From an uncultured Bacilli bacterium (GTDB lineage: Bacteria > Bacillota_I > Bacilli_A > RF39 > UBA660): DNA of 27,084 bases. Positions 355-27,084 of the stretch are shown in pieces. The stretch spans positions 1 to 27,084 of the forward strand of contig CALVVP010000080.1 in assembly GCA_944363895.1 (NCBI GenBank), given 5' to 3'. The position numbers and the translations under genes are program-made. Position 1 is the first letter of the stretch; every line of letters starts with the position of its first letter. The notes under the pieces were generated by a model that made no database searches, was not told the DNA's origin, and was given only the letters and a program-made list of their open reading frames with translations.

Positions 355-3300
355 TTGAAAACAAAAAATGATTTAAAAATAATAACTAAACATTATAATA
401 ATTTAATCAAATTAACTAAACAACATTATTTTATTGGGATAACAAATGAATGGATTATCGATAATTATTATTTAATTGTTGAAAAAGCAAACAGGATTAA
501 ACAATTTTATAAAAATAAAAAAGAAAGCCAATATTTAGATAAAAATGTTAATTTAATTAATATTTTAGAACATATTTTAGAATTTCGTAATTATCGAATC
601 GATGAAATTAGTTTAATTAATAATATTAAAGACTATTGTAAGGAAAATAATATTCATTTAAATTATCAAGAAATAAAGATTATACCTAATGCTTTAGCCA
701 TTGTTCTTATAAATAGACTAAGTGAAATTTGTCAAAAAGAAAGAATTAAATTAAAAGAAAAAGCTATCATTGATCGGATTGTCAAAAAAATGCCGAAAGA
801 TGGGAAGATAAAAAGTTTAGAAAATTATTTACCAAATAATTTCCTTACTTCCTCTTCAATGATTGTCTTTTTTAATGATAAAATTAAAAATTTTGGTAAT
901 TCAGCTAATAGTATTTTTAAACAATTAAATAATTATTTAGAAAAAAACAATATTTCTTTAAGAAAAACAATCAATAAAGAACATCTAAATAACACTAATG
1001 ATAATATTTTAATAGCCAATATTTTTTATAGTATTAAAGAAATAGAAAATATCGATATTGAAAATTTAAATGAAGCTTTATGTCATGTGGAAAAAATACT
1101 ACATAATGATCCTTATTACACAATGATGACATTAGAAACGAAAAATTTATATCGCAAACAATTGATTAAATTAGCTAAAAAAAGAAAGCAAAATATCGAA
1201 GATTTAGCTAATGAATTAATTAAAATTGATAAAAATATTGGCGATTTATTATTTGCTCAAAAAGATATAAAATTTAAAACTTTCATTTATTTATTTTTAA
1301 TTATTTTCTTTAGTACTTTATTAACCATTATTTTATCTTATTATTTTATTCCTAATAAATGGCTAGGATTTTTCATTTTAATTATTCCTGTAAGTGAAAT
1401 TGTGATAACTTTTTTAAATAAAATTTATTTAAAAATTTATCCACCTAAACCACTAGCTAAATTAGATTTTGAAAAAGGAATTCCGAAAAACTATAAAACA
1501 ATGGTCGTAATTCCGACAATTTTAAAAAACAAAGAAAAAGTTGAGGAAGTGTTTAATAAATTAGAAAGTTATTATTTAGCTAATAAATCTAAAAATATTT
1601 ATTTTACGCTTTTAGGTGACGCTTGTGAGTGTAATCAAGAAAAATATGCAAAAGACGAAGAAATAAAAAAAGCTGGTCTTTTAAAAGCTGGTGAACTAAA
1701 TAAAAAATATCATGAAGAAATATTTTATTTTGCTTACCGTAAAAGAATTTATAGCGAAAGTGAGGAAAGTTTTTTAGGTTTTGAAAGAAAAAGAGGCGCT
1801 TTATTACATTTTAATGATTTAATTTTAAATAATTTAAGTGAAGAAGAAGAAAATAAGTTTTTTCAAATTCATACTTTCCACAATTTTAAACACAAAATAA
1901 AATATGTTATTACCTTAGATGTTGATACACAATTAGTTTTAAATAGTGCTTTAAAATTAGTCGGTACGATGGCTCATCCAATTAATAAACCAATTTTAAA
2001 TGAAGAACAGACAAAAGTTATTAAAGGATATGGTATCTTACAACCTAAAATTAGTGTCGATGTGGAATCGACAAATAAATCTTTATTTTCGCAAATTTAT
2101 GCCGGAATCGGGGGCTTAGATCCATATTCGACAATCGTCCCTAATTTTTATCAAGATGTTTTTAAAGAAGGTAGTTTTATCGGTAAAGGTATCTATGATT
2201 TAGAGATTTACCAAAAAGTATTAAAGGGAAGATTCCCGAATCAACTTATTTTAAGTCATGATTTATTAGAGGGAAATTATTTAAGATGTGGAGTTGTTAG
2301 TGATGTTGAACTAATCGATGATTTTCCTTCAAAATTTTTAGTTGATGCAACAAGACGTTCCCGCTGGGCCAGAGGGGATATGCAAATAATCAATTGGATT
2401 TTTAGTAAAGTGAGAAATGAGAAACAAGAAAAATATCACAATCCAATTAATGCTTTAGGTAAATTTAAAATTATCGATAATATTCGTCGAAGTTTATTAG
2501 ATTTTTCTTTATTATTAATTTTAATATGTTTATCAATTTGTACTGTCCATCCTTATTGGTGGTTATTATTTATTTTATTTATCGTTATTTTACCAGTTAT
2601 TTCTTATATCATCCAATTATTTACGATTCAAGATAAAAATAGTAAAAATTTAAAATATTATAATATCATGGTTTTTGGTTATCAAGCGTTTATCTTACGG
2701 ACAGTATCAGTATTTACTAATATTCCTTACAATGCTTATTTATATGTTAAAGCTTTTATCATTGCCATTTATCGGATAACGATTAGTAAAAAACATTTAT
2801 TACAGTGGATGACAGCCGAAGATGCCGATAAACAAGTTAAAACAACCTTAACTAATCATTTAAAACAATTTTGGATAAATTACATAGCAGCTATTTTATT
2901 TATAGTTTTAGGTTTAGCTAGTAAATACCCAATCGAATGTATTATTATCGCTATATTCTTTATTATCGCTCCTTTTTTAGCTTATGCGATTAGTGATGAT
3001 ATTAAAAAAAATAATCATAAATTAAAAAAAGATGAACAAGAATATTTAACTAATATTGCTAGATTGACCTGGAAGTTTTTTAAAGAAAATATTAAAGAGG
3101 AAAATAATTATTTAATTTGCGATAATTATCAGTTAAACCGTGATAAAAAAGAAGATTATAAAACTTCGCCAACTAATATTGGACTATCATTAATTGCTAT
3201 TTTATCAGCTTATGAATTAAACTTTATCAGTAAAAAGGAAACAGTCGATTATTTTAATAAAATAATTAATACTGTGGAAAAACTACCAAAATGGCATGGT

Positions 3301-6300
3301 CATCTATATAACTGGTATAAAATTAACACATTAGAAGTGATATATCCTCATTTTATATCAACGGTCGATAGCGGTAACTTTGTCGCTTCATTAATTACCA
3401 TTAAAGAATTTTTAAAAACTATCAAGGAAGATAAATTAGCCAATAAAATTATAAAATTAATTCAAGAAACGGATTTTTCTAAACTTTATAGTCAAAATGA
3501 AGTTTTTAGTATCGGTTATAATGTCGATGAAGGTATTTTAGAACCATATAACTATAATAAATTTGCTAGTGAAAGTAGAATTACTAGTTATATTGCGATT
3601 GCTAAAGGTGATGTGACCAGTAAACATTGGTTTAATTTAGATAAAACTTTAACGACTTATAAAAGAAAAAAAGGTCTTGTTTCTTGGTCGGGTACTTCTT
3701 TTGAATATTTTATGCCACTTATATTTATTCCTACTTATGACAATACTTTAATCGATGAAAGTTATGATTTTGCTTTTTATGCACAAAAAGAATTTATGAA
3801 AGAAGTTAATCGAAAATATCCTTGGGGCATTTCGGAATCAGCTTATAATGAATTAGACGATGCTCAAAATTATAAATATAAAGCGTTTGCTACCCCTTAT
3901 TTAAAACTGCAAGAAGAAGCAAACAACCGGATTGTTATATCACCATATAGTTCTATTTTAGCGCTACCACTTTTCCCGGATGATGTTTTAAGCAATATGA
4001 AAAAATTAGAAAAGTTAAAATTAGTTGGTAAATATGGTTTTTATGAATCTTATGATGCTGATGATGAGGCGGTTGTTTATTCTTATTTTGCCCATCACCA
4101 AGGAATGATTTTAGGAAGTATCACGAATACTTTAAAAAACAATATTATGCAAAAATACTTTATGGATGATATTAATAATCATGCTTTTGAAATATTGAAT
4201 AAAGAAAAAGTTCAATTAAAACCGATTATCGATGTTAATATTACAAAATATAAGAAATATACCTATGAAAAAGAAACATTTATCAACGATATCAGAGTCT
4301 TTCACCAACTGGCTACTTTACCAGAAGTTTCGGTTTTATCCAATTCAAAATATAGTGTTTTTATGAACGATCGAGGCAATGGTTTTAGTCGTTATCGAAC
4401 AATTCAATTAAATCGTTATCGAAAAATTACGGAACAAGATTATGGCATATTTTTATATATTAAAGATATTAATACTAATGATATTTGGTGTAATACTTAT
4501 GCACCGATTAATAAAATGCCAGAAAAATATGAAGTGGTCTTTGCCTTAGATAAAATAAAATTTATCCGTTTAGATCATAATATTATTACAACTACCGAAG
4601 TCGTGGTCGCTAAAACGCATCATGCGGAAATTAGAAAAGTAACTTTTAAAAACCTTAGTGACCAAACTAAAACTTTAGAATTGACTACTTATACCGAACC
4701 AATTTTAAGTGAAAATATGGACGATATAAGTCATAAAGCTTTCCAAAACTTATTTGTGCAAAGTGAATATGAGGAAAAGACCAATTCCATTATTATGCAT
4801 CGAAAATTAAGAGATAAAGATATCACTTATTATATGGTCAATCGTCTATTAATCGATGAAGATAGTAATTACAGTTATGAAACTAATCGTTATAACTTTA
4901 TTGGTCGCAATCGAAGTGGCGCTAATCCAATCGCTTTAGAACAAAAACTTACGAATACAATTGGTACTTGTATCGATCCGATTATCAGTTTAAGAAGTCA
5001 AATTACCATTAAAGGAAATAGTGAAAAAACAGTTTATTTAATTAATGGCTTTGGTAAATCAAAAGAACAAGTATTAGAAATAGTAAGTGTATTTTCTAAT
5101 CCAGAACAAATTTTTGAAAAAGCTTTTGAAGTAGCTACTATTATGAATAATGTAACTAATAAAATGGTCGATATTACGGGACATGATATGCGCCTTTATA
5201 ATACCATGTTAAATTATTTATATCAGACTAGTCACATTAGTGTTAATAAAGAAAGAACGAAAATTTTAAAAAACAATACTTTAAATCAAACCGGATTATG
5301 GAAATTTGGTATTTCTGGTGATCGTCCAATCGTTTTCTTAGAAGTGGAAAATTTAGATAATCTAAGTTTAGTTAAAGAATTATTACATACTTTTGAATAT
5401 TATAAAAGTAAATCGATTTTTATTGATTTAATTATTTTAAATAGTAAAGATGAACAAGATAAAAAAATAATTAATGAAGAAATCGATAATGAAAAATACC
5501 GCATGTATGCTTTAAATAGTTTTAATAAAACACCAGGGAATATTTATATAATTAATCCTAGTGATGTAACTTTAGAAGAAATAACATTGTTTAAAACAGC
5601 GGCGAGAATTAATATCGATAGTAAAAAATATCATTCATTAGAAGAATTTGTGTTGAGTTTACAAAAATTAAATACGGTTAGCCGTAAAGAAACAGTTAAA
5701 AAAGAAAATACGCAATTTAACTATGATAAAAAATTAAAGTTTTATAATACTTATGGGGGCTTTAATAATGATGGTAAAAAATACATTATCACTAATCCCG
5801 ATACCCCTTTAATTTGGTGCAATATCCTAGCTAATAAAAATTTTGGCAGTATTGTTTCCAATAATCAAATCGGATTTACTTATGCTTTAAATAGCCGCGA
5901 ATATAAATTAACTTCTTGGTCAAACGATCCCTTGTTAGCGAATAGTTCTGAAGGAATAAAAATTAATGATGTCCACTTAAAATATCAAGTGGCGGAAGTA
6001 AGTTTTGGGAAAATGCGGTTTTTAGGAAGTTGGAAAAATTTTGATTTTGATTTAAAACAATTTGTCGCTTATGATGATCCAATTAAATTTTATTATTTAA
6101 AAATTAAAAATAACAACAAAACAAAACAAAAATTAAATTTAAAATATTGGATTAATCCTTGTTTAGGGGTTACCGAGGAAAAAACGAGTCGTTATATTTT
6201 AAGTGAATATAAAAAAGAAAAAAATTGTGTTTTATTGAAAAATAAATATAGTCAACACTTTTCTAATATAAGTACTTTCATGGGCTGCACACTACCAATT

Positions 6301-7968
6301 GAAGATATAAAAACTAAAAGAATTATCTCTAAAGAAATTGTTACTTCTTTAGAAATAATGCCTAATGAAGAAGTCGAGCTAGCATTTACTTTAGGAACAG
6401 TTGCTGATGATAAAGACTTAAATAAGTATAATTCAATTGAACAAATTAAATTAGAAGAAAGAAAAGTTACGAAATATTGGCAAGATATGTTAGAAATTAT
6501 CCAAGTAAAAACTGGCAACGATAGTTTTGATTATCTACTTAATGGTTGGTTAACTTATCAAGCCATAGTATCGCGACTTTATGCGAAAGCAGGATTTTAT
6601 CAAGTTGGGGGAGCTTATGGTTATCGCGACCAATTACAAGATAGTATGAATATTTGTATAATTCATCCAGAAATCACTAAAAACCAAATTTTATTTAATG
6701 CAATGCATCAATTTAAAGAAGGCGATGTTTTACATTGGTGGCATAAGGAAACTAAAATCGGTTTAAGATCAAAATATAAAGATGATTATTTATGGTTAGT
6801 TTATGCAACGAGTGAATACCTTAATGTCACTGATGATTATAAAATATTAGATGAACAAATTTGCTTTGTCGATGGACCAATTCTTACAAATGAAGAAATG
6901 GAAAAAGGCATCGAATATAGCTATACTGAAAAAAAAGCTACGCTTTATGAACACTGTCTATTGGCTTTACAATTAGCTAAAAAAGAAATTGGCGCAAATG
7001 GTTTACCACTAATTAGAGGTGGTGACTGGAATGACGGTATGAATAAAGTAGGGGAAAAAGGGCAAGGAACTAGCGTTTGGTTAGGATTCTTCTTATACCA
7101 AGTAATCGATAATTTTATTAATTTTACAAAAAAATATAATAAAAATATTAAAACTGATGAATGGGAAGAATTAAAAGATAATTTAGCTAAAGCTTTAAAA
7201 AAATGTTGGGATACTGACCATTATTTAAGAGCATTTTTTGATAATGGTGAAAAGTTAGGTTCTAATGATAACTTAGAATGTAAAATTGATTTAATTTCTC
7301 AAAGTTTTGCTATCCTTTCTGGTCTTGCTAGCGATGAAGAAACTAAAGATATTCTAAATGCTGTGGATAAATACTTATTTGATAAAAACTTAAAAATTGT
7401 CAAATTGTTAGATCCGGCTTTTGAAAAATCGAAAAATAATCCAGGATATATTATGAATTATCCTAAAGGAATTAGAGAAAATGGTGGTCAATATACTCAT
7501 GCTGTTGCTTGGTATATCGAAGCTTTAATTAAAACAGGTAATTATAATTTAGCTTATGAAATCTTTCAAATGATTAATCCAATTGAAAGAACTAAAAATA
7601 AAAACGATACCGATATCTATCAATTAGAACCATTTGTTATTGCTGCCGATATTTATAGTAATGATAATTTTAAAGCTAAAGGCGGATGGAGTTGGTATAC
7701 TGGTAGTGCGGGATGGTTTTATCGCGTTGGTTTAATCGATATTTTAGGTTTCGATAAAAAAGGCGATAAATTATATATTAAACCCCATTTACCAAATGAT
7801 TGGCCACAATATGAAATTACTTATAAATTTCAAAATACAACTTATCATATAACAGTAATAAATAGTAACAAAAATAGTATTACTGTGGATAAAAAAATGA
7901 TTAAAAATAATTATATTCCTTTAATTGATGATAATAAAACTCATGAAGTTGTCGTTAGGAGGTTGTAA
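355..7968 (+). CDS. Cyclic beta-1,2-glucan synthase (Cgs/NdvB)-like multidomain membrane protein: GT84 glycosyltransferase, ~6 TM segments, central glucoamylase-like (GH144/GH189-type) domain, C-terminal GH94 phosphorylase; 2537 aa
   Basis: TTG start after AGGAAGTAGGG. Motifs: GFERKRG (1777-1797), VITLDVDTQL, SHDLLEG, RRSRWARGDMQ; three paired hydrophobic stretches; SWSGTSFEYFMP, PWGISESAY, FAHHQGM; GFYQVGGAYGYRDQLQD, HWWH, GGDWNDGMN, RENGGQYTH, GGWSWYTGSAGW. Confidence 0.88.
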   Translation: MKTKNDLKIITKHYNNLIKLTKQHYFIGITNEWIIDNYYLIVEKANRIKQFYKNKKESQYLDKNVNLINILEHILEFRNYRIDEISLINNIKDYCKENNIHLNYQEIKIIPNALAIVLINRLSEICQKERIKLKEKAIIDRIVKKMPKDGKIKSLENYLPNNFLTSSSMIVFFNDKIKNFGNSANSIFKQLNNYLEKNNISLRKTINKEHLNNTNDNILIANIFYSIKEIENIDIENLNEALCHVEKILHNDPYYTMMTLETKNLYRKQLIKLAKKRKQNIEDLANELIKIDKNIGDLLFAQKDIKFKTFIYLFLIIFFSTLLTIILSYYFIPNKWLGFFILIIPVSEIVITFLNKIYLKIYPPKPLAKLDFEKGIPKNYKTMVVIPTILKNKEKVEEVFNKLESYYLANKSKNIYFTLLGDACECNQEKYAKDEEIKKAGLLKAGELNKKYHEEIFYFAYRKRIYSESEESFLGFERKRGALLHFNDLILNNLSEEEENKFFQIHTFHNFKHKIKYVITLDVDTQLVLNSALKLVGTMAHPINKPILNEEQTKVIKGYGILQPKISVDVESTNKSLFSQIYAGIGGLDPYSTIVPNFYQDVFKEGSFIGKGIYDLEIYQKVLKGRFPNQLILSHDLLEGNYLRCGVVSDVELIDDFPSKFLVDATRRSRWARGDMQIINWIFSKVRNEKQEKYHNPINALGKFKIIDNIRRSLLDFSLLLILICLSICTVHPYWWLLFILFIVILPVISYIIQLFTIQDKNSKNLKYYNIMVFGYQAFILRTVSVFTNIPYNAYLYVKAFIIAIYRITISKKHLLQWMTAEDADKQVKTTLTNHLKQFWINYIAAILFIVLGLASKYPIECIIIAIFFIIAPFLAYAISDDIKKNNHKLKKDEQEYLTNIARLTWKFFKENIKEENNYLICDNYQLNRDKKEDYKTSPTNIGLSLIAILSAYELNFISKKETVDYFNKIINTVEKLPKWHGHLYNWYKINTLEVIYPHFISTVDSGNFVASLITIKEFLKTIKEDKLANKIIKLIQETDFSKLYSQNEVFSIGYNVDEGILEPYNYNKFASESRITSYIAIAKGDVTSKHWFNLDKTLTTYKRKKGLVSWSGTSFEYFMPLIFIPTYDNTLIDESYDFAFYAQKEFMKEVNRKYPWGISESAYNELDDAQNYKYKAFATPYLKLQEEANNRIVISPYSSILALPLFPDDVLSNMKKLEKLKLVGKYGFYESYDADDEAVVYSYFAHHQGMILGSITNTLKNNIMQKYFMDDINNHAFEILNKEKVQLKPIIDVNITKYKKYTYEKETFINDIRVFHQLATLPEVSVLSNSKYSVFMNDRGNGFSRYRTIQLNRYRKITEQDYGIFLYIKDINTNDIWCNTYAPINKMPEKYEVVFALDKIKFIRLDHNIITTTEVVVAKTHHAEIRKVTFKNLSDQTKTLELTTYTEPILSENMDDISHKAFQNLFVQSEYEEKTNSIIMHRKLRDKDITYYMVNRLLIDEDSNYSYETNRYNFIGRNRSGANPIALEQKLTNTIGTCIDPIISLRSQITIKGNSEKTVYLINGFGKSKEQVLEIVSVFSNPEQIFEKAFEVATIMNNVTNKMVDITGHDMRLYNTMLNYLYQTSHISVNKERTKILKNNTLNQTGLWKFGISGDRPIVFLEVENLDNLSLVKELLHTFEYYKSKSIFIDLIILNSKDEQDKKIINEEIDNEKYRMYALNSFNKTPGNIYIINPSDVTLEEITLFKTAARINIDSKKYHSLEEFVLSLQKLNTVSRKETVKKENTQFNYDKKLKFYNTYGGFNNDGKKYIITNPDTPLIWCNILANKNFGSIVSNNQIGFTYALNSREYKLTSWSNDPLLANSSEGIKINDVHLKYQVAEVSFGKMRFLGSWKNFDFDLKQFVAYDDPIKFYYLKIKNNNKTKQKLNLKYWINPCLGVTEEKTSRYILSEYKKEKNCVLLKNKYSQHFSNISTFMGCTLPIEDIKTKRIISKEIVTSLEIMPNEEVELAFTLGTVADDKDLNKYNSIEQIKLEERKVTKYWQDMLEIIQVKTGNDSFDYLLNGWLTYQAIVSRLYAKAGFYQVGGAYGYRDQLQDSMNICIIHPEITKNQILFNAMHQFKEGDVLHWWHKETKIGLRSKYKDDYLWLVYATSEYLNVTDDYKILDEQICFVDGPILTNEEMEKGIEYSYTEKKATLYEHCLLALQLAKKEIGANGLPLIRGGDWNDGMNKVGEKGQGTSVWLGFFLYQVIDNFINFTKKYNKNIKTDEWEELKDNLAKALKKCWDTDHYLRAFFDNGEKLGSNDNLECKIDLISQSFAILSGLASDEETKDILNAVDKYLFDKNLKIVKLLDPAFEKSKNNPGYIMNYPKGIRENGGQYTHAVAWYIEALIKTGNYNLAYEIFQMINPIERTKNKNDTDIYQLEPFVIAADIYSNDNFKAKGGWSWYTGSAGWFYRVGLIDILGFDKKGDKLYIKPHLPNDWPQYEITYKFQNTTYHITVINSNKNSITVDKKMIKNNYIPLIDDNKTHEVVVRRL

Positions 7969-7969
7969 A

Positions 7970-9163
7970 ATGTTAAGAACTGATTTTAAAACATATTTAA
8001 AAGATAAAAATTTAAAACCTTATGATGCAAAAATCTTGGAAATTAAAAATACTTTATCTAATGGTGGAGAAATGCTCGATTGGTATGATATCAATAAATG
8101 TATTTCTTTAAATGATTTAGCTAGAATTAAAAAAATAAGTCAAGAAATAAGACAAAACTGTGAATTATTTATCGTAATTGGGATTGGTGGTTCCTTTTTA
8201 GGAGCTAAAGCGGTGATTACAGCTTTAAAACCATATTTTACTAAAGATAATCCAGAAATTATTTTTGCAGGCAATTCTTTATCAGAAAGTTACCTTACAG
8301 AATTAATTGACTATATGGAAAATAAAGATACCGTTGTCAATGTTATTTCTAAATCGGGAACTACTTTAGAACCAAGTATCGCTTTTGACCTTATCTATAA
8401 TAAAATGTTACAAAAATATCCTACTGAAGAATTAAAAAAAAGAATCATTATTACAACCGACCCGACAAAAGGTGTTTTACGGAAACTAGCTAATGACAAC
8501 AACTATCCATCATTTATTGTTCCTGAACAAATTGGCGGAAGATATTCGGTGTTAACAGCAGTCGGACTTTTACCGATTGCTGTAGCTGGTATCGATATTG
8601 ATAAACTATTATTAGGAACTAAAGAGGTTAATAAAGATTTAGCCTTTGAATATGCTGTAAATCGTGATATTTTATATCATCAAGGAAAATTAATTGAATT
8701 ATTTACTTTCTATGAACCTAAACTAGCATATTTTACCGAATGGTTAAAACAATTATTTGGGGAAACCCAAGGTAAGGATTTAAAAGGAATATATCCTAGT
8801 TCTTCTAATAATACTCGTGATCTACATTCTTTAGGACAATTTTATCAAGAGGGAACACCGATTATTTTTGAAACTGTTATTGGTATTAATCAAAAAGGGC
8901 ATTTAAAAAATAATTTATATGATTATCCAGTTGAAGATATTAACATGATTGCTTTAAAACAAGTTGCTTTTGCCCATTTAGAAGCTGGTGTGGAAAGTAA
9001 TATTATTATGATCGATCAATTAGATGAATTTCATTTAGGAATGTTAATATATTTCTTTGAAATTGCAGCAGCTACGGGAGCTTATTTACTCTCAGTTAAT
9101 CCTTTTAATCAGCCGGGAGTAAATTTTTATAAAAATCTGATTACAAAAGAACTAAAAAAATAG
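7970..9163 (+). CDS. pgi: Glucose-6-phosphate isomerase (compact, ~397 aa)
   Basis: Motifs GIGGSFLGA, SKSGTTLEP, GGRYSVLT, QLFGETQGK, DLHSLGQ, NPFNQPGV..YK. Start moved from 7925 to ATG 7970 because AGGAGG lies at 7957-7962; it begins 1 nt after the upstream stop. Confidence 0.93.
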   Translation: MLRTDFKTYLKDKNLKPYDAKILEIKNTLSNGGEMLDWYDINKCISLNDLARIKKISQEIRQNCELFIVIGIGGSFLGAKAVITALKPYFTKDNPEIIFAGNSLSESYLTELIDYMENKDTVVNVISKSGTTLEPSIAFDLIYNKMLQKYPTEELKKRIIITTDPTKGVLRKLANDNNYPSFIVPEQIGGRYSVLTAVGLLPIAVAGIDIDKLLLGTKEVNKDLAFEYAVNRDILYHQGKLIELFTFYEPKLAYFTEWLKQLFGETQGKDLKGIYPSSSNNTRDLHSLGQFYQEGTPIIFETVIGINQKGHLKNNLYDYPVEDINMIALKQVAFAHLEAGVESNIIMIDQLDEFHLGMLIYFFEIAAATGAYLLSVNPFNQPGVNFYKNLITKELKK

Positions 9164-9181
9164 CCATTGGCTATTTTTTTT
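9154..9181. terminator. Bidirectional intrinsic terminator between convergent pgi and noc-like genes
   Basis: AAAAAAATAGCC-ATT-GGCTATTTTTTT: perfect 12-bp inverted repeat with a T tract on each strand. Confidence 0.85.
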
Positions 9182-10859
9182 CTATTTTAAATATTACTTG
9201 ATATGAATCTTCAAAATCAATTTCTTCAACATCAACAGTAAATCCATATTTTTCTAATGTATTTTCGCATTCTCTTATTGTATTTAAAGCTAAACGCATA
9301 TTAGGTGCAGCAGCGGTAATTGTTGTTCCGGTATTTTGTGCTGCGATATTATTTTCTACTTCTTGATTATTCATATTAGTTGACTGAATAACTGAGTTAT
9401 CTATACTAGGTATTTCAGTTGTATTATTGTCGATAGGCACTTCATATATTGGTTGATTATCAGTAGGTTCGTTAATTATTGAAGGATTTGATTCAATATT
9501 TGATACCCCTGGTACTGTTGGTTCAATTGACGATACACTTGGTGTACTTGGTACCTCTGGCATTGTTGGTTCAATTGACGATACACTTGGTGTACTTGGT
9601 ACTTCTGGTATTGTCGGTTCGACTGTTGGTACACTTGGTTCAATACTTGGCATGCTTGGTACTTCTGGTATTGTCGGTTCAATTGTTGGTACACTTGGTT
9701 CAATACTTGGCATGCTTGGTACTTCTGGCATTGTCGGTTCAATTGTTGGTACACTTGGTTCAATACTTGGCATACTTGGTGCCTCTGGTATTGTTGGTTC
9801 AATTGATGGTACACTTGGTTCAATACTTGGCATACTTGGTGCCTCTGGTATTGTCGGTTCAATTGTTGGTACACTTGGTTCTGTGCTTGATGATAAAGAA
9901 GTTGAATCAGTCACATTATTAGTATTCATATTACTAAAGAAATTTTCTAATTTAAAATCACTTTGATTATTTTGTTCAACTTGTGGTTCTTCAAAGAAAT
10001 TGAAAAATTTACCTTCATGAAGAGGTTGTTCATTCGTTTCAACAGCAGTAGTACTAGAAGGTGCCTTTAATAATTCATCCATATCAGCAACAGGTTTTTC
10101 TTGAGGAGTTATATCTTGTGCAGTTTGTTCAATTTTATCAATATCCATAAAGCCTGGTAATTTAGTAGTATCAATACTACTTAATTCAATATCAGGAATT
10201 TGAACTACTTCTTCTTTAACAATAGGGTTCTCAATTGGTTGATTATTTGTATTTTCATTTAACATTTTATCAATCTCCTCATCTGTTTTTCGAACTGTCA
10301 ATCGTTCAGTTATAATTCTATTTAACATTTCAACTTGTTTTTTTTGGTCTTTCAATTTTAATAATGATCGAGCGTGACGTTCAGAGATTTTATTTTCTAA
10401 TAAGGCTTCTTGAACTTCATCACTTAAATTTAATAATCTTAATGTATTAGCAATAGATGATTGGGATTTTCCCACTTTTTGAGCTAAATCTTCTTGGCTA
10501 ATATAGCCCATATCCAATATTTTTTTATATGAGATAGCTTTTTCAATTGGGGTTAAATCTTCTCTTTGAACATTTTCAATTAAAGCAATTTCGACACTAT
10601 CTTTATCAGTCATTTCTGAAATAATAGCTGGAATTGTTTGTTTACCTGCTAAAACACTAGCTTTATATCTTCGTTCTCCCGCAATTATTTCATATTTATC
10701 GCCAATTCTTCTAACGACAATTGGTTGAATAACACCGTATTTTTTAATTGACAAAGCTAGTTCATTAATTGAATTTTCATCAAATTTAATTCGTGGTTGG
10801 AACCTATTTGGTAAAACATCATTTATATTTAATTCGACAACTTTTTTTTCATTTGGCAC
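9171..10859 (-). CDS. noc: ParB-family CTP-binding DNA-binding protein of the Noc (nucleoid occlusion) type with a ~320-aa low-complexity insertion; 562 aa
   Basis: GTG start after AGGAAGGGG. PNRFQPR, IQPIVVR, IAGERRYKA, ALIENVQREDL, HTH LAQKVGKSQSSIANTLRLL, ISERHARSL. The C-terminal MRLALNTIRE...GF.V..EEIDFEDSYQVIFKIEK resembles the Noc C-terminal domain as I recall it. Located directly after rsmG, the position of noc in Bacillus. Confidence 0.75.
   Translation of the reverse strand: MPNEKKVVELNINDVLPNRFQPRIKFDENSINELALSIKKYGVIQPIVVRRIGDKYEIIAGERRYKASVLAGKQTIPAIISEMTDKDSVEIALIENVQREDLTPIEKAISYKKILDMGYISQEDLAQKVGKSQSSIANTLRLLNLSDEVQEALLENKISERHARSLLKLKDQKKQVEMLNRIITERLTVRKTDEEIDKMLNENTNNQPIENPIVKEEVVQIPDIELSSIDTTKLPGFMDIDKIEQTAQDITPQEKPVADMDELLKAPSSTTAVETNEQPLHEGKFFNFFEEPQVEQNNQSDFKLENFFSNMNTNNVTDSTSLSSSTEPSVPTIEPTIPEAPSMPSIEPSVPSIEPTIPEAPSMPSIEPSVPTIEPTMPEVPSMPSIEPSVPTIEPTIPEVPSMPSIEPSVPTVEPTIPEVPSTPSVSSIEPTMPEVPSTPSVSSIEPTVPGVSNIESNPSIINEPTDNQPIYEVPIDNNTTEIPSIDNSVIQSTNMNNQEVENNIAAQNTGTTITAAAPNMRLALNTIRECENTLEKYGFTVDVEEIDFEDSYQVIFKIEKK
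9511..9881. repeat. Intragenic tandem repeat: about five 60-bp units (20 aa, EPTIPE[AV]PSMPSIEPSVP[ST]I) plus two 48-bp units (16 aa, PEVPSTPSVSSIEPT[MV])
   Basis: Lines 9601, 9661, 9721, 9781 and 9841 align column by column with few substitutions; GTTGGTTCAATTGACGATACACTTGGTGTACTTGGTAC occurs at 9517 and 9565 (48-bp period). Confidence 0.95.
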
Positions 10860-17739: not shown

Positions 17740-17915
17740 TTTTCCACATTTTTAAAAGTTATCCACATTTTTATTAACATATGTGGATAAAATTATTAAC
17801 ATTTTTTAGACAAAGTTGATAAAGTTATCCACAAAAAAGTGGATAACTACTATTTTTTAATAAATAAAAGTAATTTTCCCTGTGGATTTTTATTTTTTTT
17901 TAATATTTTTCCACA
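17740..17915. promoter_or_regulatory. oriC part 1: DnaA-box cluster upstream of dnaA
   Basis: TTTTCCACA 17740 and 17907; TTATCCACA 17759 and 17825; TGTGGATAA 17782; AGTGGATAA 17838 (1 mismatch); weaker TTATTAACA 17771 and 17793, AGTTGATAA 17814, TGTGGATTT 17881. Confidence 0.93.
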
Positions 17916-17976
17916 TTTTTGTAGCGTTTTTTAAGAAAATAAGGTAGAATATATATGAAACAAAGTGGGTGATATT

Positions 17977-19341
17977 GTGGATATAAATAGTATATGGAAT
18001 TCTTTTTTAGAAAAAATTCAAAATAGTTTAACGCCAGTATTATATGATATGTGGTTTTCAGAAACAAAATTAATTGAACTTACTGAAGAATATGCTAAAA
18101 TATTAGTACCAATGTCACTTCATAAAAAACATTTAAGAGAAAACTACATTGATTTAATTGATAAAACTTTTACTGAAGTAACTGGTTCAATCTTTAAATT
18201 TGAATTTGTAACAGAAGATGATTTAAATAATGAAACCATTATTGATATCGATGAAATTGGTGTTCCAGAAAATGCTACTTTTCAATCAAACCTTGACCCT
18301 AAATATACTTTTGAAAACTTTATTTCCGGAGCTAGTAATAAATTTGCTAAAGCTACAGCTTTAGCTGTTGCAGAACAGCCAGGAAGTATGTATAATCCAT
18401 TATTTATATATGGAAAAAGTGGACTAGGTAAAACTCACTTAATGCATGCCATCGGTAATTATATAAAAGAAAATAGTCGCAAAAAAGTATTATATGTAAC
18501 AACAGATACTTTCGTCAATGATTTTTTAAAAATTTACCGTAAAAATGAAAATGATAGCAATTTTGAAACAATTGATACTTTTAAAGAAAAATATCGAAAT
18601 GTTGATGTTTTAATGATCGATGATATCCAATATTTAGAAATTGCTCATAAAACGCAACAAGAATTCTTTAATACTTTTAATGATTTATATACAAATAATA
18701 AACAAATTGTCATTGCCTCTGATCGATCACCAGATGATTTAAAAAAATTAGAAGAAAGATTAAGAACTCGATTTGTTTGGGGATTGATTGTCGATATTCT
18801 TCCACCTGATTATCAATTAAGAATGAATATTATTGATAATAAAATCGATGGAAATAACATGAATACTTTTTTTCCACAGGATGTCAAAGAATATATTGCC
18901 AACAATTGCACTAGTGATATTCGCAAACTAGAAGGAGCCATTACGCGAATTATCGCTTATGCCACAATCATGAATGGTTCCGATATTACATTAGATTTAG
19001 CTATGGATGCTTTAAAAGATTATTTTGGAACAACAACTATTTCAAAAAATAAAATTGAACAAGTTCAACAAATTATTGCTAATAATTATAATATTAGTAT
19101 TGAAGATTTAAAAGGTAAAAGAAAATCTAATGATATCACAATTCCAAGACAAATTGCTATGTATATTTGCCGAGTCTATTTGAAAGAATCACTTCCCCGT
19201 ATCGGATCAGAATTTGGGGGAAAAGATCATACTACAGTCATGCATGCAGTCAACAAAATAAAAAAAGAAGTAGAAAATAATGATGAACTTAATATTGAAA
19301 TTAACAAAGTTCTTAATCAATTACCGTGGATAACTAAATAA
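17977..19341 (+). CDS. dnaA: Chromosomal replication initiator DnaA
   Basis: Walker A GKSGLGKTH, Walker B LMIDDIQ, RLRTRF, DIRKLEGA, GGKDHTTVMHA. GTG 17977 preferred over 17965 because AAGTGGGTGAT is at RBS spacing. Confidence 0.98.
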   Translation: MDINSIWNSFLEKIQNSLTPVLYDMWFSETKLIELTEEYAKILVPMSLHKKHLRENYIDLIDKTFTEVTGSIFKFEFVTEDDLNNETIIDIDEIGVPENATFQSNLDPKYTFENFISGASNKFAKATALAVAEQPGSMYNPLFIYGKSGLGKTHLMHAIGNYIKENSRKKVLYVTTDTFVNDFLKIYRKNENDSNFETIDTFKEKYRNVDVLMIDDIQYLEIAHKTQQEFFNTFNDLYTNNKQIVIASDRSPDDLKKLEERLRTRFVWGLIVDILPPDYQLRMNIIDNKIDGNNMNTFFPQDVKEYIANNCTSDIRKLEGAITRIIAYATIMNGSDITLDLAMDALKDYFGTTTISKNKIEQVQQIIANNYNISIEDLKGKRKSNDITIPRQIAMYICRVYLKESLPRIGSEFGGKDHTTVMHAVNKIKKEVENNDELNIEINKVLNQLPWITK

Positions 19342-20609: not shown

Positions 20610-20614
20610 ATATT

Positions 20615-20641
20615 TTCGACAAAATTCGACAAATTTCGACA
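20615..20641. promoter_or_regulatory. Three tandem TTCGACA (= TGTCGAA, Spo0A box consensus TGNCGAA) sites at 10-bp period upstream of the comK-like gene
   Basis: TTCGACA at 20615, 20625 and 20635; followed by TG-A-TATAAG at 20651-20659 (imperfect extended -10). Confidence 0.7.
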
Positions 20642-20700
20642 ATATATCTGTGATATAAGAGTAATGCCATTTTTATTTGGTCAGGGAGGGAGGTAAATTG

Positions 20701-21171
20701 ATGTTTGATGAATATTATATTAATGATGATACATTATTGATTGTACCATTTGGAAAAAATAAATCTAAAATATACGATATAAATGGAACTTATATTGTAA
20801 AAAAGTCAGTATTTGAAATTGTCGATATTAGTTGTCAATATTATGGCAGTAGTTATTCTGGTAGATATATTGGTGCTAAAAATTTATTAGATATGGATTA
20901 TAAATTACCAATAATTGTCGATGAAGTCAAAGAAACAGTTATTTTTCCAACTTGTTCACCTAAATCAGATAGTTGTTGTTGGTTATGTGTGAATAATATC
21001 GATAATTATGAAAAATTAAAGAAAAATTCTAAAGTTAAATTTGTTAATGGCTTAACTTGTGAACTTAAAATATCGCTTAATTCTTTAGAAAATCAAATAA
21101 TGCGAGCAACGATGTTATTAATGCGATTAAAAAGAAGAAAAAATAGTCCTAAAAAAAGTGTAATAAAATAG
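20701..21171 (+). CDS. comK: ComK-family (competence transcription factor-like) protein, 156 aa
   Basis: YYINDDTLLIVP, IVDISCQYYGSSYSGR, YKLPII, IFPTCSP..DSCCWL, VKFVNG..ELKIS...LENQIMRA match the ComK family pattern. ATG 20701 after GGAGGGAGGT. Orthology to true ComK is not established. Confidence 0.8.
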   Translation: MFDEYYINDDTLLIVPFGKNKSKIYDINGTYIVKKSVFEIVDISCQYYGSSYSGRYIGAKNLLDMDYKLPIIVDEVKETVIFPTCSPKSDSCCWLCVNNIDNYEKLKKNSKVKFVNGLTCELKISLNSLENQIMRATMLLMRLKRRKNSPKKSVIK

Positions 21172-24357: not shown

Positions 24358-26811
24358 ATGGATAGATTAGAAAAAAGAAATATAGTAGATGAAGTAAGAC
24401 AATCTTTTATTGATTATTCGATGAGTGTTATTGTTTCACGGGCTTTACCGGATTTAAGAGATGGTTTAAAACCTGTTCATAGACGTATATTATACACAAT
24501 GTATGAAGACAATTTAACACCCGATAAGCCATTTAGGAAAAGTGCAACTACGGTTGGTGCTGTTTTAGGTCGTTATCATCCGCATGGTGACTCCTCAGTT
24601 TATGATGCGATGGTTAGAATGGCTCAAGATTTTAGTTATCGTTATGTTTTAGTTGAAGGTCATGGTAATTTCGGTTCGATCGATGGTGATGGAGCAGCTG
24701 CTTATCGTTATACGGAAGCTCGTCTTTCTAAATTATCACTTGAATTATTAAGAGATATAAATAAAAATACGATTGATTTTACTCCTAATTTTGACAATAC
24801 AACAAAAGAACCAGTTGTTCTACCTAGTAGATTTCCTAATATTTTAGTAAGTGGAACAATGGGAATCGCTGTTGGTATGGCCACTAATATCCCACCGCAT
24901 AATTTGGGTGAGGTAATTGATGGTTGTGTTGCTTATATTGACAATAATGATATAACTGTTTCTGAATTAATGCAGTATATTAAAGGTCCAGATTTTCCAA
25001 CAGCAGCAACTATTTTGGGCAATAATGGTATTAAAAAAGCTTATGAAACTGGTCGTGGGACAATTACTATTCGTAGTAAAGTCGAAATTGTGGAAAATAA
25101 CAATAAAAATCAAATTATTATTACAGAATTACCTTATCAAGTTAATAAAAAAGCTTTACAAGAGCGGATTGGTGAATTAGTTCGGGAAAAAATAATCGAC
25201 GGCATTAGTGATCTTCATGATGAAAGTAATTTAAAAAATGGTATTAGATTAGTTGTCACTTTGAAAAAAGAGGCTAATGCTAATGTTGTTTTAAATAATT
25301 TGTTTAAACATACTCAATTACAAACTACTTTTGGAATAATTTTATTGATGTTAGATGAAGGTCGTCCTAAAATTTTAAATTTAAAAGAAATTATTTCTAA
25401 ATATATCGATTATCAAAAAATAATTATTATTAGAAGAACTAAATTTGATTTAGATAAAGCTGAAAAAAGAGTTCATATTTTAGAAGGTTATAAAATCGCT
25501 TTAGATAACATCGATGAAGTAATTAAAATTATTAGAAATGCGGAAAGTGATGTTATCGCAAAACAGGAATTGATGAATCGTTTTGGTTTATCTGATATTC
25601 AATCTGATGCTATTTTAGAAATGAAGTTAAGAAGATTAACTGGATTAGAAAGAAATAAAATTGAAGAAGAATTAAAAGAATTGTTAAGTTTAATTGAAGA
25701 ATTGAGAGCTATTTTAGAAAGTGATGAGAAAATTTATAATATTATTAAAGAAGAATTATTAGCAATTAAAGAAAAATATGGTGATGAAAGAAGAACTAAT
25801 ATTGATATGACTGCCATTGAGTATATTGAAGATGAATCTTTAATTCCTGTTGAAGATATTGTTATTACTTTAACTAATAAAGGTTATATTAAGCGAATGA
25901 CTACTGATACCTATAAAACCCAAAATCGTGGGGGAGTGGGAATTAAAGGTATGGCAACTAATGAAGATGATTTTGTTGAAAATATTATTTCTATGACTAC
26001 TCATGATTATTTATTGTTCTTCACTAATAAGGGTAAGGTATATCGAATAAAGGGTTATGAAGTACCTTTATATAGTCGTCAATCTAAAGGATTACCAATT
26101 ATTAATTTGTTGTCTTTGGATAAAGATGAATCAGTAAAAGTTATGCTGAAAGTTAGTAATGAAGAAAAAGATAAATATATTGTATTTTGTACACAAAAAG
26201 GACTAGTTAAAAGAACAGATTTAAGTGAATTTGAAAATATCAGAACAAATGGTAAAATCGCTATTACTTTAAAAGATGATGATGAGTTAATTTCTGTTAA
26301 GAAAACTAATGGTGAAAATGAGATAATAATTGCTTCTTCTAATGGTAGAATGATTCGATTTAATGAAAATGAAATTAGAGTAATGGGACGTACTGCTTCT
26401 GGTGTTCGTGGTATTGATATTGGCGATGGTGTAGCAGTAGGATGTGAAATTGCTGAAAAAGGTCAGAAGATTTTAGTTGTAACAGAAAAAGGTTATGGTA
26501 AAAAAACTGATGTTGAAGAATATCGTATGACTCATAGAGGTAGTAAAGGTGTTAAAGGATTAAATGTTACTGAAAAAAATGGTAATATTGTATCATTTAA
26601 AACTGTTCATGATGATGAAGATTTGATGATTATTACTAATAGTGGTGTTATTATAAGATTGCCAATTGAACAAGTTTCTTCAACTGGTCGTATTGCCCAA
26701 GGTGTACGATTGATTAATTTGAAGGATGATCAAAAAGTTTCTACTGTTGCAATGATTGAAAAAGAAAAAGAAAGTCTAATTGAAAATGAAGAATCTAGTG
26801 ATAATGACTAG
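24358..26811 (+). CDS. gyrA: DNA gyrase subunit A
   Basis: [27 protein letters not shown], catalytic RYTE, GyrA-box-like QNRGGVG at 25921-25941, C-terminal beta-pinwheel repeats. Confidence 0.97.
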
Positions 26812-26910: not shown

Positions 26911-26940
26911 TTGATTTCAACAAGTTATCCACAGTATAAT
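26911..26940 (+). promoter_or_regulatory. Putative sigmaA promoter containing a perfect DnaA box in its spacer
   Basis: TTGATT (26911-26916)-18 nt-TATAAT (26935-26940); TTATCCACA at 26925-26933. Confidence 0.55.
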
Positions 26941-26958: not shown

Positions 26959-26983
26959 GCATAATTTCTTATAGAAATTATGC
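26959..26983. repeat. Perfect inverted repeat 1 (11-bp arms, 3-nt centre)
   Basis: GCATAATTTCT-TAT-AGAAATTATGC. Confidence 0.9.
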
Positions 26984-27015
26984 TTTTTCCCATTAATTTA
27001 TTAATGGGAAAAAGC
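26982..27015. repeat. Perfect inverted repeat 2 (16-bp arms, 2-nt centre)
   Basis: GCTTTTTCCCATTAAT-TT-ATTAATGGGAAAAAGC. Confidence 0.92.
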
Positions 27016-27020
27016 CCGTA

Positions 27021-27084
27021 TAACTAATGTTTCACGTGGAACTATAAATAACTAATGTTTCACGTGGAACTATAAATAACTAAT
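27021..27084. repeat. 28-bp tandem repeat, each unit carrying a parS (ParB/Spo0J binding) site; truncated by the window end
   Basis: Unit TAACTAATGTTTCACGTGGAACTATAAA starts at 27021, 27049 and 27077 (partial). TGTTTCACGTGGAACT at 27028-27043 and 27056-27071 matches parS TGTTTCACGTGGAACA at 15 of 16 positions. Confidence 0.88.

Follow-up and report, generated by a model that had tools for sequence, protein, structure and literature searches.

The closest described counterpart of the locus analysed here is sopC on the Escherichia coli F plasmid, where SopB, a ParB-family protein, binds a 16-bp inverted repeat in each of 12 direct repeats of 43 bp (PMC3177203). In Bacillus subtilis, the chromosomal parS sites occur as individual 16-mers scattered across a large origin domain, often within genes; the consensus in Firmicutes is TGTTNCACGTGAAACA, the sites lie near oriC, and their partners are Soj, a Spo0J with the R...G specificity residues, and SMC-ScpAB. 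In Myxococcus xanthus, a stretch of about 3 kb that lies 4 kb upstream of parA contains 22 parS repeats (PMC3899335). These sites have a mean spacing of about 140 bp with no regular short period, lie beside parAB in a 9-Mb deltaproteobacterial genome, and form the densest chromosomal parS cluster that we found described in the literature. A related system is that of Noc in B. subtilis and Staphylococcus aureus, where a ParB paralogue encoded beside rsmG, with the specificity residues Q and R, has its own Noc-binding sites (NBS). Why the number of parS sites varies if one suffices, and what drives the clustering of parS, are open questions in the field (PMC7333895).

The locus described here lies at the end of the window, the whole 27,084-nucleotide stretch of DNA that was analysed, and shares traits with each of these systems. 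Like sopC, it consists of head-to-tail direct repeats with one ParB-family 16-bp inverted repeat per unit, separated by short, non-coding spacer DNA. Unlike sopC, it is chromosomal and origin-proximal, sitting between the chromosomal gyrA gene and ffs/tadA and away from a parAB operon, with soj-spo0J on another contig. Its sites are chromosomal Firmicutes parS rather than the SopB motif, and its period is 28 bp (25-38 bp in the genus) instead of 43 bp, with a copy number that is possibly higher. It resembles the sites of B. subtilis and other Firmicutes in the 16-bp inverted-repeat consensus, the position near oriC and the partner proteins, but forms one intergenic tandem array instead of dispersed single sites. 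As in M. xanthus, many chromosomal parS are packed into one short origin-proximal stretch. As in the Noc systems, the genome encodes a paralogue with Q and R beside rsmG and contains NBS-like palindromes; the array units, however, are parS, and the paralogue lacks the permissive lysines, has a short N-terminus and carries a repeat linker of about 320 residues. Relative to the literature, the locus is a probable ParABS centromere with sopC-like architecture on a chromosome, previously undescribed as far as searched. Literature searches, in a collection that lacks many subscription journals, turned up no earlier account of chromosomal parS arrays with a short period, nor any of parS in this lineage.

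The array and its surroundings in the host genome

The host (G000) is an uncultured bacterium from the chicken gut, represented by a 0.99-Mb metagenome-assembled genome with 27% G+C, 115 contigs and 82% completeness. The window is the whole of its contig C80, which breaks inside the repeat. Genes follow the order rnpA, dnaA, dnaN, recF, gyrB, gyrA and then the array, and the features that matter between the origin and the contig end are these:

17759-17833: perfect DnaA boxes upstream of dnaA, marking the likely oriC
17965..19341, plus strand: dnaA (open reading frame list)
24358..26811, plus strand: gyrA (open reading frame list), conserved on the left side of the array in all relatives examined (tblastn synteny)
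26911..26940, plus strand: promoter-like site (TTGATT, 18 nt, TATAAT), about 95 bp upstream of the array
26925-26933: perfect DnaA box TTATCCACA in the spacer of the promoter-like site, outside the array
26959..26983, plus strand: terminator-like, perfect 11-pair hairpin followed by TTTTT, from the sequence
26982..27015, no strand: perfect 15-pair palindrome directly before the array, adjoining the hairpin at 26959-26983
27020..27084, no strand: first part of the tandem parS array (Tandem Repeats Finder, parS pattern search, contig-end comparison and unitig depth)

About 7.7 kb separates the array from dnaA and the likely oriC, the origin being placed by gene order and DnaA boxes and not by skew. 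Tandem Repeats Finder (TRF) reports 27020-27084 as a repeat of period 28 with 2.3 copies, 100% matches and a score of 130. The 28-bp unit is ATAACTAATGTTTCACGTGGAACTATAA, and the parS core TGTTTCACGTGGAACT occurs once per complete unit, at 27028-27043 and 27056-27071. The minus-strand reading of the core is AGTTCCACGTGAAACA, with one mismatch to the parS consensus (15/16). The window contains four strand-matches to parS, against 0.03 expected from dinucleotide-preserving shuffles, and four were reached in none of 100 shuffles.

The array stops at 27084 because the assembly broke there, the window being an entire contig. It continues on contig C38 (L001), which in reverse complement starts within the 28-bp unit of C80 with the register unchanged. 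The portion on C38 amounts to about 4.6 units: a perfect but truncated unit (0.64 of the full length), a pair of degenerate units, a unit whose core differs at one position (TTTTTCACGTGGAACT), and a final perfect unit that borders unique DNA. Spacers between cores in the host array are identical 12-mers. Since the ends of C80 and C38 are not directly overlappable, the array has at least 7 units; two of these are degenerate, so not every unit is maintained. Beyond the array, C38 carries the SRP RNA gene (ffs; Rfam RF00169, 61 bits) and then tadA, dnaX, ybaB, recR, holB, rsmI, pth and mfd. The order inferred across the gap between the two contigs (gyrA, array, SRP RNA, tadA, dnaX) agrees with the loci of all 12 relatives examined. 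The first-pass annotation, made from the letters of the window, had described at least 2.3 identical 28-bp units, each with a 15/16 parS match, running off the window; TRF, the pattern search and the continuation on C38 all agree with that description, except that the array starts at 27020, one base before the 27021 given there.

Short elements fill the space between gyrA and the array. Judging from its sequence, the hairpin at 26959..26983 would halt transcription from the upstream promoter-like site ahead of the array. A hairpin resembling the palindrome at 26982..27015 flanks the arrays of G014 and G016, and a DnaA box also adjoins those of G020 and G010.

Other classes of repeat were considered for the array and rejected. 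In an NBS array the units would carry the A at position 1 and the C at position 6 of the half-site in ATTTCCCGGGAAAT, and the units here keep the parS G and A instead. A CRISPR array would have unique spacers; here they are identical in the host and homologous AT-rich variants in relatives. For a DnaA-box cluster or iteron-type origin repeats, the best match to TTATCCACA inside the unit has 3 mismatches of 9.

Copy number in chicken-gut metagenomes

Sequencing depth was taken from Logan unitigs of four independent chicken-gut metagenome runs (X1-X4), that is, from contigs and not from raw reads. In all four runs the perfect unit appears as a 58-nt cyclic unitig (28 + k - 1). The k-mer depth of the repeat is 500 in X1, 430 in X2, 458 in X3 and 81 in X4, compared with 10.5, 9.3, 5.5 and 4.8 for the unique flank, giving ratios of 48, 46, 84 and 17. 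These ratios suggest tens of units and serve as an upper bound only, and the copy number derived from them is inexact, since the unit is shared among congeners and the depths come from Logan contigs alone. The congener G014, for example, has a unit identical to that of the host in a flank that is only 86.6% identical, and the same runs contain variant units from related strains.

A separate stretch of the window, 26538-26606 in the C-terminal region of gyrA, has a unitig depth 4-50 times that of its surroundings in four of four runs. Other organisms presumably share this stretch, which would then be an example of shared k-mers inflating depth in these metagenomes.

Arrays in relatives

Sites of the parS type occur in 21 of the 24 genomes sampled in the genus, most of them as tandem arrays. 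The period is 25 bp in G024, 27 bp in G017 and G018, and 28 bp in the host, G014 and G016. Longer periods are found in G008 (34-35 bp), in G001, G004, G005, G007 and G023 (35-36 bp), in G010, G013 and G020 (36-37 bp), and in G012 (37-38 bp). Looser clusters are present in G003, G009 and G019, with sites 95-411 bp apart, and in G021, with two sites 72 bp apart. The genus maximum assembled in one piece is 19 sites, in G020; G013 has 12 sites and one degenerate site, G010 has 7, and the 26 sites of the G007 genome include 15 at one contig end. Complete assembly is seen for arrays with diverged spacers, and tandem arrays explain the recurrent contig break beside gyrA in metagenome-assembled genomes of this group.

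The position of the locus is conserved as well. Of the 12 loci retrieved, which come from the genus and six further genera of the family, all have the parS cluster next to gyrA and/or tadA-dnaX; nine of these loci span both flanks and three end at the array on one side. Across the family, 61 of 200 genera have parS pairs 9-30 bp apart, several with runs of 10 to 17 adjacent pairs. In the rest of the class, such a tight pair occurs in 12 of 349 genomes, none of which has a run of more than two adjacent pairs (more than three sites). Among the genomes searched, long tandem parS arrays are limited to this family.

Mixed loci also occur. In 45 of the 200 family genera, parS lies 5-35 bp from an NBS, with many repeats in some (13 in G072, 9 in G121), and some genera (G153, G155, G194) have a DnaA box between parS and NBS. 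A locus of a sister genus that mixes parS, Noc sites and DnaA boxes may be a combined control element for segregation, occlusion and initiation. The two members of the window's genus within the 200-genera sample show no such parS/NBS mix. Within this centromere locus, which evolves fast and is found family-wide, the host array represents the very tight variant composed of parS alone.

A further arrangement is seen within the genus itself. In G003, G019 and G001, many parS directly abut a perfect or near-perfect DnaA box, as TGTTTCACGTGAAACA[T]TGTGGATAA, and these composite elements occur in 3 of 30 genomes of the genus:

L044 (G003), 6673-8082: 7 parS-DnaA composites
L046 (G019), 3787-5324: 5 parS-DnaA composites
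G001:C85:2903-3107: 2 parS-DnaA composites

Selection on the cores and probable turnover of the units

Core and spacer were compared in nine arrays with the units in register, and degenerate units were kept so that the choice of sites did not depend on a match to parS. At the 12 specified positions of the core, minority bases make up a fraction of 0-0.017, compared with 0.04-0.27 for the spacers. Most of the variation within cores is at positions 5 and 12, which the known parS consensus leaves degenerate, and spacers vary in both length and sequence between species. This is the pattern expected if a bound protein constrains every 16-mer and leaves the spacers largely free to vary, and it indicates purifying selection on the core in relatives.

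Periods of 25-48 bp correspond to rotations of 0 to 240 degrees per unit, a range that rules out conserved helical phasing between sites. Because helical phase is not conserved between species, independent sites are favoured over a phased higher-order nucleoprotein complex. Units are probably gained and lost, and unit length probably changed, by replication slippage or unequal exchange, which would account for the different periods of different species. The perfectly identical units of the host suggest recent expansion or homogenisation.

Candidate reader and proposed function

A scan of the 0.99-Mb assembly, a check that the first-pass annotation had proposed, finds host parS sites at up to two mismatches in the array only and none elsewhere; as the genome is 82% complete, unassembled DNA may hold another. 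A search for the partner genes, also proposed there, places soj followed by spo0J (P0002, 292 aa) on contig C9 next to ychF, SMC on C10, and ScpA and ScpB on C66. P0002 carries the GERRFRA motif, and its best structural-sequence score is with Spo0J (6SDK).

Jalal et al. (PMC7383237) showed that four positions in the HTH region decide between parS and NBS, namely R173, T179, A184 and G201 in Caulobacter ParB and Q, K, K and R in Noc. R173 contacts a parS guanine, and R173 and G201 specify parS; Q173 and R201 recognise the NBS adenine (position 1) and cytosine (position 6), for which a permissive lysine at 179 or 184 is needed, and a lysine-less QTAR variant is non-functional in the Caulobacter scaffold (PMC7383237). 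Alignment to solved structures gives R-I-R-G at these positions in P0002, R-H-T-G in B. subtilis Spo0J and R-T-A-G in Caulobacter ParB. The host genome encodes a ParA together with a ParB that has R and G at the equivalents of Caulobacter R173 and G201. Because the array keeps the parS-type G and A and NBS-like sites exist separately, a Spo0J-type protein is the expected reader, and P0002 is most likely the protein that would bind the array.

On this sequence evidence, the array is probably a chromosomal centromere, with at least 7 and possibly tens of parS sites at a 28-bp period that would provide sopC-like multi-site ParB loading for a Spo0J-type reader. The earlier proposal of a tandem, plasmid-like parS centromere array is upheld in this form: the sites are of the parS type, near the origin and the only ones in the assembly, arrays recur at the orthologous locus, and selection is visible only on the cores. 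As for the reader, two options had been put forward. A cognate Spo0J encoded elsewhere fits the gene on C9 with its R and G residues, and a hybrid Noc-like protein reading parS fits poorly with that protein's Q and R residues and with the NBS-like palindromes nearby.

In the proposed mechanism, P0002 would nucleate on each 16-bp core, close into a CTP clamp and slide off, which would free the site. Each 28-bp unit would act as an independent loading site, and the array would form a compact, high-flux point source that supplies ParB clamps to origin segregation driven by Soj and to SMC-ScpAB loading. In single-molecule experiments in vitro, more parS copies (7, 13 and 26 tested) gave a higher loading rate of ParB clamps and stronger condensation (PMC8299390). 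Array copy number may tune ParB and SMC loading, and many copies may bring a benefit. With 12 bp between cores, neighbouring ParB dimers may hinder each other sterically, or bound sites may be roadblocks to sliding clamps.

A broader idea, which we put forward tentatively, is that these gut Bacilli segregate a reduced chromosome by a satellite-like centromere of tens of parS at a 25-38-bp period, selected as a single high-flux loading point for ParB clamps and SMC. Between species, unit length and copy number would turn over fast, possibly in step with the Noc paralogue's hypervariable, disordered linker. At a single orthologous locus, this lineage provides a natural series of arrays, with 2 to 19 or more sites assembled and possibly tens, periods of 25 to 48 bp, and pure arrays or mixtures with Noc sites and DnaA boxes. 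Core gaps of 9-12 bp put the sliding-clamp model to the test, asking whether dimers load side by side and whether occupied sites block inner clamps. Tight arrays of this kind are ready natural substrates for single-molecule work.

Alternative readings

One sopC repeat suffices for the F plasmid. One parS is likewise usually enough for segregation (PMC7333895), so extra copies may be neutral. Neutral satellite expansion, with one or a few functional sites and array length as a slippage by-product in an AT-rich, repair-poor reduced genome without selected dosage, is a possible account, though we think it unlikely. It is compatible with centromere identity and competes only with the claim of adaptive amplification. 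Besides the frequent sufficiency of a single parS (PMC7333895), degenerate units are tolerated, close species differ widely in copy number and period (2 sites in G021, 19 in G020), and the perfectly identical host units indicate recent expansion. Against this, spacers have diverged by 9-27% in older arrays, yet nearly all units keep an intact core, which is unexpected with one selected copy unless gene conversion acts on the cores alone. The recurrence of multi-site arrays or clusters at the locus in 21 of 24 genus genomes, and of tight pairs in 61 of 200 family genera compared with 12 of 349 genomes outside, also speaks against this account.

Replication control as the main role is improbable. 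On that view, the array would serve as a sink for ParB and so set how active Soj is towards DNA-bound DnaA, or it would belong to a combined DnaA/ParB control region, as might be read from the perfect DnaA box 95 bp upstream in the promoter-like site, from the parS that abut DnaA boxes in the congeners G003, G019 and G001, and from the boxes between parS and NBS in other genera. The 28-bp unit itself, however, holds no DnaA box, its best match having 3 mismatches of 9, and the composites are confined to 3 of 30 genus genomes. Such control would in any case supplement a centromere role and not replace it.

The ParB-family gene closest to the array is not spo0J but the paralogue at the Noc position:

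9171..10859, minus strand: 562-aa ParB/Noc paralogue P0001, beside rsmG (Pfam, translation and PDB comparison)

P0001 has ParB_N and HTH_ParB domains (Pfam), followed by a Pro/Ser/Glu-rich low-complexity linker of about 320 residues with 20-aa repeats, and GERRYKA in place of GERRxRA. In the PDB comparison it scores best with Noc structures, at 212 bits, versus 165-174 bits for Spo0J-type chains. Only about 8 residues precede its ParB N-domain, compared with 21 or more in solved Noc chains, and the N-terminus as predicted leaves no room for the N-terminal membrane helix of Noc. Orthologues across the genus have open frames of 286 to 829 aa, and contigs often break inside them. The shortest are found in genomes with few or loose parS (G021, G019, G009, G003), an anecdotal observation, given the non-independence of the relatives and the many frames truncated at contig ends.

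That P0001 reads the array is a very doubtful proposition. Beyond its proximity, the protein has a hybrid signature, with Q-T-N-R at the specificity positions and neither of the two permissive lysines of Noc, and its length varies strongly in the genus. Yet Q173 and R201 select the A1 and C6 of NBS (PMC7383237), whereas the array has the parS G and A; the protein is nearer to solved Noc structures than to Spo0J, and a canonical Spo0J with R...G is present in the genome. Matches to the NBS-like sequence ATTTCCCGGGAAAT within two mismatches number 8 in the host genome, and 3 of them, one perfect, lie downstream of the array on the 12-kb contig C38:

4689, 7646 and 10495 of C38, plus-strand positions: NBS-like palindromes inside dnaX, holB and rsmI

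Perfect NBS-like copies also lie near the array in six relatives (L037:13840, L040:7579, L042:13594, L043:7005, L044:9871 and L046:1975), and six such copies are very unlikely to arise by chance at 27% G+C. The protein, judged by its residues and by these palindromes, probably does not read the array itself, for which the Spo0J-type P0002 is the preferred reader.

Duplication of a single parS by the assembler, which might be suspected from a repeat lying exactly at a contig end with only 2.3 units in the window, has a negligible chance of being correct and is ruled out: two contig ends bear the array in register with different degenerate variants, the cyclic repeat unitig has 17-84 times the flank depth in four independent runs, and in relatives, arrays of 5-19 sites are assembled in full within long contigs.

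Other features of the window

A gene of the ComK family (Pfam PF06338, E 6e-39) lies at 20677-21171 on the plus strand, between dnaN and recF. Upstream of it are three TTCGACA repeats with a 10-bp period (TRF 20614-20642). At the far end of the window from the array, a 2537-aa open reading frame occupies 355-7968 on the plus strand and is followed by a phosphoglucose-isomerase-like gene at 7925-9163, also on the plus strand.
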